53,571 nucleotides of DNA from Thermostichus sp. DRC_bins_24 (GTDB lineage Bacteria; Cyanobacteriota; Cyanobacteriia; Thermostichales; Thermostichaceae), in assembly GCA_039794845.1 (NCBI GenBank), contig JAUQVK010000072.1, positions 1-53,571 on the forward strand, in the 5' to 3' direction. The notes beneath the pieces were generated by a model. The model searched no databases. It was given only the letters and a program-made list of their open reading frames with translations, and was not told the origin of the DNA. Position 1 is the stretch's first letter. Each line of letters opens with the position of its first letter. A program made the position numbers and the translations under genes. This document shows, one piece after another, positions 2,594 to 10,436 of the stretch.

Positions 2594-3376
2594 ATGCCAA
2601 CCCAGCACCCCCTACGCAAGAACTCCGTCCCGCTGACGCGAGCAGCCACCTCCCCGACCTCCACCCCAGCAGCCCCAGTTCTCTTTTGCGGGCGCGGGAT
2701 CCACAAAACCTACCCGATGGGGGAGATCACCGTTCAGGCCCTTCAGGATGTGGATCTCGACATCTATGAAGGGGAGTTTGTGGTCATTCTCGGGGCCTCC
2801 GGTAGCGGCAAATCCACCCTGCTCAATATCTTGGGGGGTCTGGATCTGCCCAGCCAGGGGGAGGTGTGGTTTCGGGACTGGGATCTCAGCCATGCCGATG
2901 ATGCCACCCTGACCCGCTTTCGCCGCTACCACATTGGCTTTGTCTTTCAGTTTTACAACCTCATCCCCAGCCTCACCGCCCAAGAGAATATTGCCCTGGT
3001 AACGGAATTGGCACCGGATCCCATGCCCCCCCGCGAGGCGTTGGAACGGGTGGGGCTGGGGGATCGCTGCGATCACTTTCCGGCCCAGCTTTCGGGGGGA
3101 GAGCAGCAGCGGGTGGCGATTGCACGGGCGATTGCCAAGCGACCGGAGGTATTGCTCTGTGATGAGCCGACGGGGGCCCTGGATTTTGCCACCGGCAAAC
3201 GGGTGCTGGAGGTGCTGGAGAGCGTCAACCGCGAGTTTGGCACCACCGTTGCCGTGATCACCCACAATGCCGGGATCGCCGCCATGGCGGATCGGGTAAT
3301 CACCATGCGCAGCGGCCAGATCACCCATATTGAGCGCAATACCCACAAGGCCCGCCCCGGCGAGTTGGAGTGGTAA
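2594..3376 (+). CDS. ABC transporter ATP-binding protein (LolD/MacB-like)
   Basis: Walker [37 protein letters not shown]. Start placed at ATG 2594. Confidence 0.95.
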
Positions 3377-3378
3377 CG

Positions 3379-5772
3379 ATGCTGCATCCTCTCGATCGCA
3401 AGCTACTGCGGGATCTGCGCCAACTGTGGGGGCAGGTGACGGCCATCGCCTTGGTGGTGGGTTGCGGCATCGCCTGTTTTGTCTTGGCCCTGAGTGCCTA
3501 TCAATCGCTGGCCCTGACCCAGCAGACCTATTACGACCGCTACCAGTTTGCCCATATCTTTGCGGAGTTGAAACGGGCCCCCCAACGCTTGGAGGCCCAG
3601 ATTGCCGGGATCCCGGGGGTGCAACAGGTGCAAACGCGGGTGGTGGCGGATGTGACGCTGGATGTGCCGGGGTTGGCGGAACCGGCCACAGGGCGGCTGA
3701 TCTCAATTCCCCCAGTTCGCGCCAGCGGGACGGAGTCCTTGGATCAGCCCATGCTCAATCGCGTGTTTTTGCGGCAGGGGCGCTACCCGGATCCGCAGCG
3801 GGACCATGAGATTCTGGCCAGTGAAGCCTTTGCCGAGGCCAATCACCTGAAGTTGGGGGATCGGATCGGGGCGATTATCAACGGTCGCCGGCAATCGCTG
3901 CAAATTGTGGGCTTGGCCCTTTCCCCGGAGTACATCTACGAGATTCGCGGGGCGGGGGATCTCTATCCTGACAATCGCCGCTTTGGGGTGCTGTGGATGG
4001 GGGAAGCAGCCCTCAGCACCGCCTTTAACCTGCAGGGGGCTTTTAACAGTGTCGCCCTGACGGTGATCCCCGGTGCCCATGAGCAGGCGATCATCACCCA
4101 ACTGGATCGGCTGACGGATCCCTATGGGGGGCGGGGGGCTTACAGCCGCGAGAACCAGGTCTCCCACCGTATCCTCAGCGACGAGATCCAAAGCCTCGAG
4201 GTGACGGCGACGATCTTGCCGACGATGTTTCTGGGCATTGCCGCCTTTTTACTGCACGTGGTGCTCTCCCGCCTGATCAGTACCCAACGGGAGCAGATCG
4301 CCGTTCTCAAGGCGTTTGGCTACAGCAACTGGGGCATCGGCGTTCATTACTTGAAACTGGTGCTGGGGGTGGTGGCGGCGGGATCCGTGCTGGGCCTGGG
4401 GTTGGGCATGTGGTTGGGGCGGGGGCTGACCGGCCTCTATGCCGATTTTTTTCGCTTTCCGATCCTTACCTATCGGGCCAGCCCGCAGGTGTTGATCCTG
4501 GCTTTGTTGGTGAGTGGGGGGGCGGCACTGGTGGGGGGGCTGTTGGCGGTGCAACGGGCGATCCGCTTGCCCCCGGCTGAGGCCATGCGTCCGGAGCCTC
4601 CGGCGAGTTTTCGGCCCACCTTGGTGGAGCGGCTGGGCTGGCAGCGACTGTTTTCCCCGACGGGGCGGATCATTCTGCGCAACTTGGAGCGACGACCGAT
4701 TCGGGCGGGCCTATCCATCATTGGGATCAGCTTTGCCGCCTCGTTACTGTTGGTGGGGCTGTTTTTCCGAGATGCTGTCACTTACCTGATGTCGGTGCAG
4801 TTCTTTCAGGTGCAGCGGGAGGATGTCACGGTCATTTTCAACGAGCCGCGTCCGGCCCGCACCCGCTTTGAGCTGACCCAACTGCCGGGGGTGTTGCAGG
4901 TGGAGGGGTTCCGCATGGTGCCCGCCCAGTTGCGCCATGGACAGTATCACCAGCGGCTGGCCTTGACGGGACTGCCCCAGGGGGGCCAGTTGCGGCAACT
5001 GTTGGATCGCAACCTGCGCCCTCAGACGCTGCCCCTGGAGGGGGTGCTGCTCACCGACCAACTGGCCGAGATGCTGCACATCCAACCCGGCGAATGGCTC
5101 CAGGTGGAGGTTTTGGAGGGATCCCGGCCCCGGCGAGCGGTGCAGGTGATGGGGGTGGTGGATGAATTTCTGGGCTTATCGGCCTACATGGAGCTGGGAT
5201 CCCTGAATCGCCTCATGCGGGAGGGGGAAACCCTGTCGGGGGCCTATCTTTCCATTGATGCGGCCCAATCGCAGGCCCTTTACGATCGGCTCAAGGCCAT
5301 TCCTGCCGTGGCGGGGGTATCCTTTCGAGAAACCCTGCTGGAGAGCTTTCGGGATATCAGCGCCCGCAACCTTCTGGTCATGACCGGGATCCTGTCGCTG
5401 TTTGCGGCCATCATCACCTTTAGTGTGGTCTACAATTCCGCCCGCATTGCCCTTTCGGAACGCAGCCGTGAGCTGGCCAGCCTGCGCATCATCGGCTTTA
5501 GCCGCCACGAGATCAGCGTCATTTTGTTGGGGGAACAGAGCCTGTTGGTCTTGGTGGGGATCCCGCTGGGTTGGTTGCTGGGGTTTGGCTTGAGTGCTTC
5601 CTTGGCCAAGGCGTACGTCTCAGAGTTGTATCGGATCCCGTTGGTGATCCATCGGGTCACCTACGCCACGGTGGGGTTGGTGGTTTTGCTGGCCGCCGTG
5701 GTGTCCGGGATCTTGATCCGTCGTCAACTGAATCACCTGGATCTAATTGCGGTGTTGAAAAACCGAGAATAG
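3379..5772 (+). CDS. ABC transporter permease (MacB/FtsX-type, duplicated domain)
   Basis: ~800 aa; '[14 protein letters not shown]' and '[15 protein letters not shown]' FtsX motifs; directly follows the ATPase. Confidence 0.92.
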
Positions 5773-6000
5773 TGCTTACATCCTGGAACCAACAACGACC
5801 TCATCTTGCCTGATTCTGTCTCTGCCACCGAGCCCCTCAACGTGGAGCAGTAACGATGGGCCGAACGCCTGAAAGGCACCCACTATCGATCTGCTGTTTG
5901 TTGCGAATATATATCAATTTTCAACTTTTTCTTAACAAGTCACTTCGTTTCTTGAGGACTCGTTTTACTTTGTTACCTGTAGAGTGCTTCCAACACAATT

Positions 6001-6474
6001 ATGAGTCTTGTCGCTCAAGTGATCGCCCAGTCGGATGCAGCAGATCGCTTTCTCAGCACTGCTGAGTTAAACAAACTGCAAGATTTCTTTAGCAAAGGCC
6101 AACTCCGGGTCAGCGTGGCTCAAAAGCTGGCGGCAAATGAGCAAAAAATCGTAGATGAGGGCAGCAAGCGTTTTTGGGCAAAGTGTCCGAATACTCCCAG
6201 CAATAGTGGCAGCCCTCAAAAAACGGCTCTTTGTCAACGGGATCAGGGTTGGTATATACGCCTGGTTAGCTATTGTGTTCTGGCTGGTAACGATAAACCC
6301 CTAGAAGACATTGGTCTGAATGGCATGAGGGATATGTACATTTCCTTGGGTGTGCCACTGCCCAACTTACGTGTGGCAATGGGTTGCCTCAAAGACGTAG
6401 CAGCGGAGTTGATGTCTGCTGAAGAAATGGCTCTAGCGGCTCCTTATTTTGACCGCTTGATCCGTGCTTTTTAG
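6001..6474 (+). CDS. apcD4: Far-red-absorbing allophycocyanin alpha-type subunit (ApcD4-like)
   Basis: Phycobiliprotein motifs 'ADRFLSTAEL' and bilin Cys in 'ALCQRDQGWYIRLVSYC'; divergent ApcD-like sequence; gene order apcD-apcB-isi. Confidence 0.85.
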   Translation: MSLVAQVIAQSDAADRFLSTAELNKLQDFFSKGQLRVSVAQKLAANEQKIVDEGSKRFWAKCPNTPSNSGSPQKTALCQRDQGWYIRLVSYCVLAGNDKPLEDIGLNGMRDMYISLGVPLPNLRVAMGCLKDVAAELMSAEEMALAAPYFDRLIRAF

Positions 6475-6637
6475 TCCATGAAGCTTAGATTTATGAATCT
6501 TTAGACCCTATTTGTAGAGTTTCATTTGCAGATGGATCAGTCCTTGTTCTGTGGTTGTAGGTGATTGAGAAGAAAAGAATATCGGAATATCGCAAAAGAT
6601 CATTGCACCTCGCACACTTAGCAACAAAGGAAAACCC

Positions 6638-7123
6638 ATGCAAGATACCATCACATCGATCATCAATCCAGCTGATGAAAAAGGCGCTTACCTAGATGCT
6701 GCTGAATTGGAGAAACTGAATCGCTATTTTCAAAGTGGTAGCCTGCGTGTGAAAGCTGCAACAACCATCAGTTCTAGTGCCAGCAGCATTATCAGTAAAA
6801 CCGTTGCCAAGAGTTTGCTTTATGGGGATATTACCCTTCCCGGGGGCAATATGTACCCCACTCGGCGCTATGCTGCGTGCCTACGGGATCTGACCTATTT
6901 CTTACGTTATGCCACCTACGCCATGTTGGCTGCGGATGTCTCCATTTTGGATGAGCGAGTTCTCAATGGTCTCAAGGAAACGTATGCAACGTTGGGTGTG
7001 CCTGTCGATCGAGTGATCGAAGCTCTCAATGCCATGAAAGATGTGGTAACAGAAAGCGTCGGTACAGAAGCAGGACAAGAGATGGGCTTCTACTTGGATC
7101 ACATCATCTCCGGCTTGAGCTGA
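6638..7123 (+). CDS. apcB3: Allophycocyanin beta subunit paralog (ApcB3-like)
   Basis: '[20 protein letters not shown]', '[17 protein letters not shown]', '[13 protein letters not shown]'. Paralog name assigned from context. Confidence 0.88.
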
Positions 7124-7147
7124 GCTCGTTTTGCGCAATCTTGGGAT

Positions 7148-7172
7148 CCTCCTTCCATATTCTGGGAGGAGG
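7148..7172 (+). other. Intercistronic stem-loop between apcB3 and isiX
   Basis: CCTCCTTCCA-TATTC-TGGGAGGAGG, no poly-T tail. Confidence 0.5.
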
Positions 7173-7207
7173 TCAATTTTCACCATTGATGGAGGGCAGA
7201 GTGAATA

Positions 7208-8586
7208 ATGAACGCTAAATCAGCAAAACCTTCAACTTATCCTTGGTGGGCAGGCAACGCTCGGTTTATTAACTTATCCAATACCTTTATTGTCGCACAT
7301 GTTGCCCAGGCAGCCTTAATGATGCTTTGGGCCGGGGTATTTACTCTATTTGAGTTGGCTAAGTTCAACCCAGACTTGCCCATGTATGAACAGGGATTAA
7401 TCCTGTTGCCTCATCTGGCAACTTTGGGCTGGGGAATCGGTGAAAATGGACAGATTGTGGATACTTTCCCATACTTTGCTATCGGCTGTATTCACATGGT
7501 CGCAGCAGGTGTCTTAGCCGGAGGAGCTTATTTTCACCAGACCAAGCTCTCTCCCAACTTGGATATGGAATTTGGAAAGGCATCGAAGTTCCATTTTACC
7601 TGGGATGATGCAAAAACTTTGGGTATCATTTTGGGACATCACCTCCTGATATTGGGCTTTGGAGCTCTCCTGTTGGTTGCCAAAGCTATGTTTTTCGGGG
7701 GACTGTACGATGCTGCAACAGAACAGGTGCGGTTGGTAACTACGCCTACCTTAGACTTTGCCACCATCTTTGGTTATCGAACGCATCTTTTCGATGTCAA
7801 TAATCTAGAAGATCTAGTGGGTGGACATATCTATGTTGCCGGCCTTCTGATTTTAGGGGGTATGTGGCACATTCTCGTTGCACCCTTTGAGTGGGTAAAA
7901 GCTCGTTTTCTCTTCTCAGCAGACGGGATCCTCTCCTATTCTCTGTTCGGTATTGCCCTAGCCGGATTTGCGGGTTTAATTCGCTGGCTTATCCGGTGGA
8001 GTTTTATGGGCCAACTCTGGAGCTGAAATCTGCCTTTGCTCCATACTATTTTGATCCAACCCAAACGGGAGCTTGGAGCCATTCTTCTCGAGTTTGGTTG
8101 GCCAATGCCCACTTCTATTTGGCCTTCTTTTTCCTACAGGGATCCCTGTGGCATTTTCAGCGGGCTATGGGCTTTGATGTCAGCCAGATGGTTCGGTCTT
8201 GGCAACAAGGTTGGCAGGAGGTGACCTCCCAAGCTGTGTACCAAAACCAGTTTCAATGTCGGCCCCAACCCAACCTGGATATCTTCTATGAACCTTCTCG
8301 AGTGAATCCTGAACCTTTGTCTATATCTTCGATGAACAGCTACTTGTATCAGCTTTCGCAGGGATTACAGTCAAGATCTCTATCAGCAGTTAACGGTATT
8401 CAAAAAATCCTTTATGAGACAGGCTATACGTTCAGAAGAACAATCTTTTATGAGCCCGCTAAAAAAGGAAATTCCTTTCATTCCTCTGAACTGAAGTTTG
8501 ACTATGCCCCATGTAAACGAGACTTTACCTTTTCAAAATCTCGTCCTGCTATGCCCCAAGTTATTTATGAATCAAGCCAAACCTAA
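7208..8586 (+). pseudogene. isiX: IsiA/CP43-family chlorophyll-binding protein IsiX, frameshifted near 7970
   Basis: ORF 7208-8026 has '[10 protein letters not shown]', 'AHVAQAAL', 'LLPHLATLG', 'LGHHL', 'EDLVGGH'. Homology continues in another frame as '[15 protein letters not shown]...[22 protein letters not shown]' to the stop at 8586. Confidence 0.85.
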
Positions 8587-8629
8587 ATTGATCTGATTGA
8601 TGGGATTACAACTTTGAGTTGGTTTATCC

Positions 8630-8663
8630 CTCAGGTGAGGTAATTGCCTCTCCTGAGCTTTTT
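8630..8663 (+). terminator. Rho-independent terminator of the apcD4-apcB3-isiX cassette
   Basis: CTCAGGTGAGG-TAATTG-CCTCTCCTGAG hairpin followed by CTTTTT. Confidence 0.7.
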
Positions 8664-8993
8664 GTTGTGCCCTTGCCAGAGAAAGATTCTGTAGAAATAT
8701 TTAAAAGATTGCGATTTTACCAAGACTACGGAAATGTCCCTTTTAACCCCTGAGCCTTTGAGCCATGATTGGTTGGGTAGTGATAAAAGCATTGCAACGT
8801 CAACCCTTGGGCACTTCGATTAATTGCCTTGTTGCAAATCAGATAAGGCTAGAAAACCTATTCTATCGTTGCTATTCTCAATAAGGCTTGGATTTTTCGA
8901 TGTACCCTATTGATCTTCTTTACCATCTTCTGTAACCACTTTGGGCTTAAGTTTTGAAAACGAGAAAAACACAGTGATCGAGGGATAGTCATC

Positions 8994-10436
8994 ATGCCAA
9001 AACCCGAAGCTCGCCACCCGACGACAGAAGAGGGGGGCGCTGTTCAAGCAGAGACTCCGCGCAAGGCACCCAACCATTCCCAACCTACTTCTGCCCTGCC
9101 CCATTTGGGTTGCAAACGAACCTGGAACCCCTTTTTCTACACCTTGGGTGGAGCGGGTCTTGTGGCTCTGGTGGGCTGGGCCTTTTGGCCGTCGCCGGTT
9201 CCGGTGGATATGGCGGTGGTGGAACGGGGGTTGTTGCAGGTTACGGTTGAAGCTGAGGGCAGAACTCGTTTGCGTGAACGTTTCGAGATCGCCGCCCCGG
9301 TGGATGGCCGCTTAGAACGGATTCCGGTGCGGGTGGGGGATCCTGTTTCCTCAGGCGACATCGTTGCTCGTATCGATCCCTTACCCTTGGCTTCTCAGGT
9401 ACAGTCGATCCAGGCCCAGATCCAGCAGTTGGAGGCGGAAAAACGGGGGGTAGATACCCAACGCCCCAAAGCGGCCTTACTGGTGCAGGCAGAGGCGTCT
9501 ATCGCGGCTGCTCAAGCTCGCTACCGGCAGACCCTCGCCCAACAAGCCGCAGCTCAGGCCATTTGGGAGCAAGCCCAACGGGAACATCAACGACTTGAGA
9601 ACCTTTTTCAGCAAGGGGCCATTCCCAGACAAGCTCTGGAAGAGGCGGAACTGGCGGAAACCAGCCGTCGTCAGGCCTTAACCGCCCATCAGCAGGAAGT
9701 GGAGCAGGCCCAAGCTGCTATCTTTTCTGCTCAACAGGAATTGCAACTGCTGCAGGCCCAGCAGCGGGATCCCGACTATCTGCTCCAGGTGTACGATGCT
9801 CAAATTCGTTCCTTGCAAGCCGAGTTGGCCAGCCTGGCCGATTCAGCCCAGCGCACCACCATGACGGCTCCGGCGGCAGGGCAGGTGCTGCGGGTGCATC
9901 AAGAGAGCGCCCGTTTTGTCCCGGCGGGTACGCTGCTGGTGGAGATCGGGGATCCCGGCCAGCTGGAGCTGGAGATTGATGTTCTTTCCAGCGATGCGGT
10001 CAGGATTCAACCCGGGGATCCCGTTCAGGTTCGGCAGTGGGGGGGATCCCAGGCGTTACGGGGCAGTGTGCGTACCGTCGAGCCAGCCGCCTTTACCAAA
10101 GTGTCGGCCTTGGGGGTAGAAGAGCAACGGGTCAACATCATCGCCAGTATTGAGTATCCTCCTGTCCGTTTGGGAGATGGCTACCGCATTGAGGCCGAGG
10201 TGATCATCTGGCAGAACGAGGAGGCCTTGAAACTCCCCCTCAGCGCTCTGTTTCGTTGCCAAGATCAGTGGTGTGTTTACGTGGCGGAAGAAGCACGTGC
10301 CCAACAACGGCAGGTGGCTTTGGGCCAGCGCAGCACCACCATGGCAGAGGTTTTGCAGGGCCTGGAAGCCGGCGAAACGGTGATCCTCTACCCCTCCGAT
10401 CACGTTCAGCCTGGGCGACGGATCCAACCTCGCTGA
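8994..10436 (+). CDS. Efflux membrane-fusion (periplasmic adaptor, HlyD/MacA family) protein
   Basis: N-terminal TM, lipoyl half-motifs 'APVDGRL...VGDPV' and 'APAAGQV', coiled-coil hairpin, 'KVSALGVEEQRV'. Confidence 0.92.
   Translation: MPKPEARHPTTEEGGAVQAETPRKAPNHSQPTSALPHLGCKRTWNPFFYTLGGAGLVALVGWAFWPSPVPVDMAVVERGLLQVTVEAEGRTRLRERFEIAAPVDGRLERIPVRVGDPVSSGDIVARIDPLPLASQVQSIQAQIQQLEAEKRGVDTQRPKAALLVQAEASIAAAQARYRQTLAQQAAAQAIWEQAQREHQRLENLFQQGAIPRQALEEAELAETSRRQALTAHQQEVEQAQAAIFSAQQELQLLQAQQRDPDYLLQVYDAQIRSLQAELASLADSAQRTTMTAPAAGQVLRVHQESARFVPAGTLLVEIGDPGQLELEIDVLSSDAVRIQPGDPVQVRQWGGSQALRGSVRTVEPAAFTKVSALGVEEQRVNIIASIEYPPVRLGDGYRIEAEVIIWQNEEALKLPLSALFRCQDQWCVYVAEEARAQQRQVALGQRSTTMAEVLQGLEAGETVILYPSDHVQPGRRIQPR

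Follow-up and report, generated by a model that had tools for sequence, protein, structure and literature searches.

What does an IsiA-like chlorophyll protein do with a long soluble tail behind its last membrane helix? The question is raised by the isiX gene of Thermostichus sp. DRC_bins_24 (NCBI GenBank assembly GCA_039794845.1), which lies on contig JAUQVK010000072.1; the whole stretch analysed here, positions 1 to 53,571 of the forward strand and 53,571 nucleotides (nt) long, is called the window. The product of this gene, IsiX, ends in a tail of 141 amino acids (aa) with a series of tyrosine motifs, and the two genes in front of it, apcD4 and apcB3, encode the alpha subunit and the beta subunit of a far-red allophycocyanin (FRL-AP). 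We consider it rather probable that the tail is a multivalent linker, built into the membrane protein, for the nanotubes formed by ApcD4 and ApcB3, the tyrosine motifs being, as we infer, the contact points and allophycocyanin the partner that they contact.

The concept of a tether or ruler is already in print; the motif, its spacing and a set of stand-alone tail proteins, called mini-IsiX here, are the new parts. Olsen et al. 2015 (PMC4477158) reported for IsiX an extension of nearly 100 residues, and Gisriel et al. 2023 (PMC10038336) proposed that an extension of 127 residues serves as a molecular ruler that is threaded through the nanotube or wrapped around it. It is from ApcD4-ApcB3, which co-purifies with IsiX, that nanotubes form, and in Thermostichus sp. 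A1463 IsiX is induced by low light and is purified together with FRL-AP. In papers of 2025-2026, up to August 2026, it is still as a hypothesis that the extension is said to hold the nanotube, and the same is true in print of the membrane attachment and the length limit of the nanotube. The tyrosine motif is not described in the portions of the IsiX and ApcD4 literature that could be located, to which Soulier et al. 2022 and Soulier's thesis do not belong and may add more; the supplement of Gisriel et al. 2023 prints the tail sequence, names no motif in it and uses the word 'tyrosine' 0 times.

A spaced row of tyrosines

An earlier note on this DNA had listed seven motifs in the tail, AVYQN, IFYEP, YLYQL, ILYET, IFYEP, FDYAP and VIYES, at irregular distances of 12-25 residues. 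All seven are present in the translation of 8161-8583 (141 aa), with their tyrosines at tail residues 27, 43, 63, 85, 97, 115 and 136 and with 16, 20, 22, 12, 18 and 21 residues from one motif tyrosine to the next. The hydrophobic-Y-[E/Q] pattern by which the note described them fits six of the seven and does not fit FDYAP, and an eighth conserved tyrosine, Y89 in GYTF, has to be added to its list. Six occurrences of the pattern are far more than the composition of the tail would give: shuffles that keep this composition contain 0.52 on average, and 0 of 100,000 reach six. The tail is also singular within its own genome, where 12,346 stop-to-stop frames reach a length of 100 aa and only that of the tail holds six motifs in a span of 141 aa; no frame holds five and two hold four.

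A word-based search with the tail against longer proteins returned five proteins of 452-466 aa, all of which combine PF00421 with a homologous tail, and the tail of the window can be aligned over its full length with those of P0001-P0005. When a profile of six tails was compared with 1.84 billion representatives, 12 proteins were matched at E <= 0.001, 11 of them being IsiX tails or pieces of such tails. P0016 (1321 aa) was rejected as a relative, being a spurious repeat protein. Scanning one genome per species gave four tail loci; the tail is found in 8/401 sampled cyanobacterial genomes, including that of the window, and the ESM Atlas gave no usable match for it. It is with a small family that we are dealing, scattered over five families in addition to the window's own.

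In an alignment of 18 tails, whose identity to the tail of the window ranges from 22 to 71%, the mean column identity is 34%. Nine columns are invariant (W14, Y27, Y43, Y63, L84, Y85, Y89, Y97 and Y115), seven of which are motif tyrosines, and A2, Q28, P35, Q36, T83 and Y136 are kept in at least 90% of the tails. The earlier note had held that its interpretation would fall if the motifs were not conserved among IsiX orthologs; the motif tyrosines are in fact invariant or nearly so, while their neighbours drift. The distances are kept as well. Y27 and Y43 are 16 residues apart in 18/18 tails, Y63 and Y85 22 residues apart in 17/18, and Y85 and Y89 four residues apart in 18/18; the interval is 8-9 residues from Y89 to Y97, 18-22 from Y115 to Y136 and 19-24 from Y43 to Y63, with 31 in one tail. 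Only the spacer between Y97 and Y115 varies widely, from 13 to 44 residues. In P0007 (497 aa) the core unit N(T/I)LYQ..YH....(F/L)YE is doubled and its second copy lies inside this variable spacer, which indicates that the number of motifs can grow by internal duplication in a spacer that tolerates insertions.

The residues around the tyrosines are less constrained. Among 195 tyrosines in 19 tails, 104 are preceded by F, L or V and 112 are followed by Q or E, while proline stands at +2 in 55 cases and at +3 in 47. Judged from these alignments, the tyrosine is the fixed element of the motif and its flanking residues are preferences. The hydrophobic-Y-[E/Q] pattern is nevertheless enriched over composition-keeping shuffles at P <= 0.0056 in 18/19 tails and at 0.069 in the nineteenth, in tests that are not independent since the tails are related; each tail has 4-7 motifs, against 0.4-0.8 in the shuffles. 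The tail as a whole is a fast-changing part of its protein: in an alignment of 14 full-length sequences, 150/323 columns are invariant in the membrane body against 10/141 in the tail, and the mean column identity is 84% for ApcD4 and ApcB3 against 34% for the tail. It is on the tyrosines, rather than on the rest of the tail, that selection is seen to act in these comparisons.

No fold could be assigned to this part of IsiX. AlphaFold2, run on an alignment of 18 tails, predicted one helix (residues 7-27, beside helix VI) and coil for the rest, with a mean predicted local distance difference test score (pLDDT) of 57 and a predicted template modelling score of 0.18. For full-length P0001 it gave six long helices, the junction helix and then coil at pLDDT 26-36, in a model that is poor overall (mean pLDDT 48, 14 sequences). 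The tail matched 0 Pfam families and 0 chains of the Protein Data Bank (PDB) at E <= 10. With no fold predicted and no Pfam or PDB match, the tail, which is rich in P, Q, S and Y, behaves as a disordered region with short linear motifs, and a fold that depends on a partner would be possible on these models.

Association with ApcD4-ApcB3 and the mini-IsiX proteins

If the tail serves the far-red allophycocyanin, the two should be found together. ApcD4 at an identity of at least 69% is present in exactly the 8/401 genomes that have the tail. Two other genomes have ApcD4 matches of 52-53%, located in far-red light photoacclimation (FaRLiP) clusters with apcE2-like genes and photosystem paralogs, and neither has the tail. 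At 11/11 of the other tail loci apcD4 (69-87% identity) and apcB3 (71-88%, the range that separates the window's apcB3 from the gene beside every other tail-bearing isiX) adjoin the tail gene; nine of these loci are co-directional, and in two (L023 and L025) isiX is convergent.

The association persists where the chlorophyll protein itself has disappeared. Directly behind apcB3 in genome G101 stands an open reading frame (ORF) of 173 aa (L022 6122-6643), in which IsiX residues 1-28 are joined in frame to the tail and the six membrane helices are gone. G101 has no full-length IsiX, and its other matches are psbC-like and psbB-like genes and one broken IsiA-like piece; G288, a sister genome of the same genus, has a full IsiX of 472 aa. 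Between the two genomes the ratio of nonsynonymous to synonymous substitution rates (dN/dS) is 0.18 for the tail at a dS of 0.82, compared with 0.07 for apcD4 and 0.08 for apcB3. Ten further proteins of 173-193 aa, from several sources and on contigs of up to 6.09 Mb, have the same junction as the G101 protein and are named, if at all, 'hypothetical protein'. The mini-IsiX set comprises L022 6122-6643 and the proteins P0013, P0018 and P0020-P0029, and mini-IsiX matched 0 Pfam families at E <= 10. Downstream of the G101 gene, at L022 7140-9224, lies an ORF of 694 aa that resembles a sensor kinase and is called so putatively, from an H-box seen by eye and without a family search.

Across 11 mini-IsiX proteins, 93/129 columns are invariant in the tail against 15/28 in the N-terminal remnant, and 12/13 tyrosine columns of the tail are invariant. 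This conservation implies that selection keeps the strip in proteins without the chlorophyll-binding part, always beside apcB3. The mini-IsiX proteins are the strongest argument that we have, and they point to a strip whose business is with allophycocyanin.

Proposed mechanism and alternatives

The published dimensions of the nanotube set limits to what such a tail could reach. Seven ApcD4-ApcB3 protomers make two turns (720°) over 72.6 Å, and the tube has an inner diameter of 43 Å and an outer diameter of 112 Å; the closest solved structure to the ApcD4 of the window is chain 8ddy_A (8DDY, ApcD4 of the helical nanotube, E 6.9e-91). From these figures it follows that each protomer adds 10.4 Å of rise and 103° of twist, with a pitch of 36 Å, and that equivalent points on successive protomers, at a radius of 12-20 Å, are 21-33 Å apart. 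Spacers of 16-22 residues easily cover this distance, the gap of eight residues barely does and that of four does not. Y85, Y89 and perhaps Y97 therefore probably act together as one composite site. If each protomer took up one site, the six to seven sites would correspond to one repeat of the helix, which is geometrically possible in this model; one site per turn is equally possible.

In the mechanism that we propose, the extension of IsiX would be a disordered strip on the cytoplasmic side, with eight conserved tyrosines in motifs of the form [I/L/V/T]-[F/L/V]-Y-[E/Q]-(P) and with spacers that drift in sequence and are mostly fixed in length. Each motif, or the Y85/Y89/Y97 block as one site, would insert its tyrosine, with the hydrophobic residue in front of it, into a pocket repeated from protomer to protomer along the helical ApcD4-ApcB3 nanotube, and one tail would hold about six to seven sites at once. 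It would act as a linker polypeptide that nucleates or limits the assembly of the nanotube, and it would fix the nanotube on the cytoplasmic face above the chlorophylls of IsiX, and in this way energy could reach photosystem I (PSI). That the tyrosines and their spacing are conserved, that no fold is predicted, that tail and ApcD4 strictly co-occur and that a stand-alone tail exists all points to a multivalent allophycocyanin-binding strip, and the interpretation of the earlier note, a docking strip, is partly supported by these comparisons. A bolder version is also conceivable, in which the [F/L/V]-Y-[E/Q]-P array is a new linear motif for docking phycobiliproteins that replaces the folded linker domain, takes up one protomer per site, templates one helical repeat and sets the length of the antenna, and in which mini-IsiX, a stand-alone linker, is the autonomous form of the module; taken as a whole, we think it unlikely.

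Several observations count against the linker proposal. As the recombinant nanotube is formed in the absence of IsiX, assembly as such does not require the tail. A tail that bound some third component, one needed only while FRL-AP is being made, would likewise be expected to co-occur with apcD4-apcB3 and to lie next to them. Neither E/Q at +1 nor P at +2 is strict, about 43% of the tyrosines being followed by another residue. A positive net charge, as in linkers, is found in just 13/18 tails, while ApcB3 is acidic in 12/12 sequences and ApcD4 mostly neutral to basic. The tails probably descend from one ancestor, to judge by the IsiX bodies, which are separated from the IsiA paralogs of the genome itself at a support of 88/99, not a strong value (the row own_L006 of this tree, with a branch length of 5.6, probably represents a wrong frame and was disregarded); the 18 sequences are as a consequence not independent. 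Finally, in the window as assembled a gap of 16 nt cuts the frame of the tail off from its start codon.

Other roles for the strip have to be weighed against the linker. It may bind a different partner, for example the stromal ridge of PSI (PsaC/D/E) or another membrane complex, and thereby position IsiX, with the nanotube attached elsewhere on the protein. In the published model IsiX is indeed a peripheral neighbour of PSI (Gisriel et al. 2023, PMC10038336), no IsiX is needed for the nanotube to assemble, and co-occurrence does not name the protein that is touched. Yet the mini-IsiX clade has kept the tail, has lost the membrane body and stays behind apcB3 in a genome without full-length IsiX, and a tail that positions IsiX at PSI would be purposeless once the chlorophyll body is gone; apcD4 and apcB3 are, besides, the only genes inherited together with the tail in all 12 genomes examined. 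Another partner is for these reasons rather improbable in our view. The same mini-IsiX proteins, which have no membrane body to hold together, are an obstacle to the idea that the tail folds only between copies of IsiX, for instance as inter-subunit beta structure with a tyrosine core, and holds rings or rows of IsiX together without touching allophycocyanin. Fixed spacers and invariant aromatic residues would suit such a fold, which a single-chain prediction from 14-18 sequences could miss; however, no strand or helix is predicted beyond residue 27, the composition is rich in P, Q and S, and a compact fold would poorly tolerate a spacer of 13-44 residues and the duplicated motif unit of P0007. 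We hold a fold of this kind to be quite improbable.

Aromatic residues near bilins shift their spectra, and the tyrosines could accordingly have a mainly photophysical function, lying against the exposed beta-phycocyanobilins in the lumen of the nanotube and tuning or quenching them in the manner of linker residues in phycobilisomes; the tail would bind here too, and another function would be selected. The solvent-exposed side of the beta chromophore is indeed the position that a linker would take in toroidal allophycocyanin (PMC11614940), but absorption at 709 nm is seen in the recombinant nanotube even when IsiX is absent, and tuning as the main role seems to us likewise quite improbable. 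It is hardly credible that a biased composition, in an extension that evolves fast and has no function, has produced the motifs by the way. The richness in P, Q, S and Y and the mean column identity of 34% are what such an origin would leave; the shuffled tails, with 0.4-0.8 motifs where 4-7 are observed, the eight tyrosine columns that are invariant or nearly so and the dN/dS of 0.18 contradict it.

The conserved tyrosines, at mostly fixed distances, make the published hypothesis testable with a small number of point mutations and peptides, and the naturally occurring stand-alone tail protein could be used in such tests as a soluble reagent. Should the contact indeed be made by the motif, an assembly of phycobiliproteins would be organised by a disordered multivalent strip instead of folded linker domains.

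The cassette, its broken gene and known systems

The genes of the window that bear on these questions are collected in Table 1. Between 5501 and 9000 the fraction of guanine plus cytosine (GC) is 0.40-0.51, against about 0.60 on the flanks, and this low-GC island holds three genes on the + strand in the order apcD4-apcB3-isiX. The trio is the cassette for low-light photoacclimation (LoLiP) known from Olsen et al. 2015 (PMC4477158) and from Gisriel et al. 2023 (PMC10038336), and the gene that starts at 7208 encodes IsiX, an IsiA-like chlorophyll protein.

Table 1. Features of the apcD4-apcB3-isiX cassette and of the IsiX tail in the window
Feature	Position	Strand	Remarks
apcD4, far-red allophycocyanin alpha subunit, 157 aa	6001..6474	+	PF00502, E 1.6e-51; presumed partner of the tail
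apcB3, far-red allophycocyanin beta subunit, 161 aa	6638..7123	+	PF00502, E 4.6e-53
isiX 5' part: helices I-V and start of helix VI, up to the gap	7208..7968	+	PF00421, E 9.6e-49; 93% identity to P0001 residues 1-256
Break point: 16 nt of intact copies missing, frame shifted	7968..7969	+	absent letters flanked by two TGCGG direct repeats and coding for part of GFAASYYCGFN
isiX 3' part, second frame: rest of the helix VI region to LQGSLWHFQ	7969..8160	+	ORF 7891-8586; 78% identity to P0001 residues 254-463
IsiX C-terminal tail, 141 aa and stop	8161..8586	+	junction helix predicted, then about 115 residues without predicted structure
Motif 1, AVYQN (Y27)	8233..8247	+	Y27 in 18/18 tails; Q28 in at least 90%
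Motif 2, IFYEP (Y43)	8281..8295	+	invariant
Motif 3, YLYQL (Y63)	8341..8355	+	invariant
Core block, 17 residues: motifs 4 and 5 (Y85, Y97) and Y89	8407..8457	+	best-conserved part of the tail; L84, Y85, Y89 and Y97 invariant, T83 in at least 90%
Motif 6, FDYAP (Y115)	8497..8511	+	invariant; the spacer before it is the sole insertion-tolerant one
Motif 7, VIYES (Y136)	8560..8574	+	Tyr in 17/18 tails

As assembled, isiX is divided between an ORF at 7208-8026 (272 aa) and another at 7891-8586 (231 aa), which overlap and are in different frames; compared with intact homologs and with a contig of metagenome run X1, the window lacks 16 nt behind 7968, and the frame is shifted there. This break is absent from the earlier note. 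The translation of the window passes straight from AGFA to CGFN, whereas intact homologs have AASYYC in this place. The 3' ORF scores 23.9 bits for PF00421, slightly below the cut-off of 25 bits, as only the end of helix VI lies in it. The split gene is the sole copy of isiX in the genome of the window (3.5 Mb in 115 contigs, 99.93% complete). In the hot-spring metagenome run X1, the probable source of this DNA, the only contig that spans the site (6519 nt, depth 16.6) shows 16 additional letters after 7968 and otherwise 0 differences from the window over 7500-8600, and the contig of a relative in run X3 has 16 letters identical to these at the same place. With the 16 nt restored, the gene has 761 + 16 + 615 = 1392 nt and as many codons, 464, as its closest homolog, P0001. 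The break may thus be an artefact of the assembly, or else a variant of the population that carries a deletion; we did not adopt as the main interpretation that isiX is a dead gene, a frameshift pseudogene, because the contig of run X1 is itself intact. The tail lies wholly downstream of the break and is not damaged. A metatranscriptome run of the same study had no contig on this stretch and is uninformative on expression.

The earlier note had also stated that the cassette has no linker-protein gene and that canonical IsiA has no such tail, and the second statement holds, as does the first as far as tested. PF00502 and PF00421 are the only families matched by the island's four real ORFs, and the IsiA-like protein of the genome itself (345 aa, L002) ends 26 residues after LWHA, in agreement with what Gisriel et al. 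2023 report of IsiA. On the flanks of the island we read, from their translations and without a family search, an ABC-transporter permease (3370-5772) and a gene of the membrane-fusion type (8994-10436). No photoreceptor gene adjoins the cassette in the spaces 5772-6001 and 8586-8994; the published cluster of A1463 includes the photoreceptor LcyA. A second low-GC stretch, at 501-2000 (0.44-0.48), holds an ORF of 370 aa on the minus strand (795-1907) with hydrophobic ends.

Genome G272, of the same genus, has neither the tail nor ApcD4, and this absence, together with the low GC of the island, fits horizontal acquisition of the cassette, as was suggested before by Olsen et al. 2015 (PMC4477158). 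A DNA search of G272 with positions 4300-10300 of the window gave weak allophycocyanin-like matches only, by which the borders of the island cannot be mapped. Scanning 5700-9000 for promoters and terminators gave a number of sites not above that of shuffled sequences. A stem-loop of 10 pairs followed by a T-rich run is found between apcB3 and isiX, at 7148-7172. If this were a partial terminator, in a region where terminator-like sites are no commoner than in shuffles, more allophycocyanin than IsiX would be made, as a model with one tail and many protomers needs.

The nearest known system is IsiX of Synechococcus (Thermostichus) sp. A1463, with the same gene order apcD4-apcB3-isiX, an IsiA-like body and a C-terminal extension of about 127 residues. 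In print this extension is regarded, by hypothesis, as an unstructured ruler to which the nanotube is tied, an idea that the earlier note shares. The A1463 tail (Gisriel et al. 2023, fig. S14) has the same motifs and is close to that of P0002, which is 52% identical to the tail of the window. The copy of the window differs from it in the sequence of the tail, in having no adjoining photoreceptor gene and in the gap of 16 nt as assembled. IsiA (CP43') belongs to the same family as the body of IsiX, PF00421, at an identity of about 56% (Gisriel et al. 2023, PMC10038336); unlike IsiX it ends about 26 residues after helix VI and has no tyrosine strip. The genome of the window (G000) has in addition an IsiA-like gene on contig C78, 2650-3591 (L005), with a frame of 526-542 aa and a hydrophobic C-terminal extension, an extended paralog distinct from IsiX.

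Among the true linkers, ApcE, which joins core and membrane, and the rod linkers (PF00427, PF01383) are scaffolds that determine how large phycobiliprotein assemblies become and that fill their central cavities, and they do so with folded repeat domains, none of which is present in the tail or in mini-IsiX. CpcL, by which phycobilisome rods attached to PSI are linked to the membrane, is composed of a folded linker domain and a single helix. It resembles IsiX in that a membrane anchor is united in a single polypeptide with a part that occupies the cavity of a phycobiliprotein stack and connects this stack to PSI, a contact that for the IsiX tail is putative; it differs in that the IsiX tail has no Pfam family (E <= 10) and no predicted fold and in that the anchor of IsiX is a six-helix chlorophyll protein. 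The analogy between CpcL and IsiX was drawn in Gisriel et al. 2023 (PMC10038336) and in PMC13037873. ApcG and ApcI, small and largely disordered proteins that bind the phycobilisome core, anchor to allophycocyanin by an FxxM motif whose conserved phenylalanine interdigitates with ApcA (bioRxiv 10.1101/2024.09.09.612062). The tail has no sequence relation to them in the tail-profile search or in Pfam at E <= 10, and FxxM is absent from the tail of the window, where 0/9 phenylalanines have M at +3. ApcG and ApcI have one motif per protein, placed in a helix, whereas the IsiX tail has eight tyrosines in a row; their FxxM anchor is nevertheless the nearest precedent for the contact chemistry that we propose for the IsiX tail.

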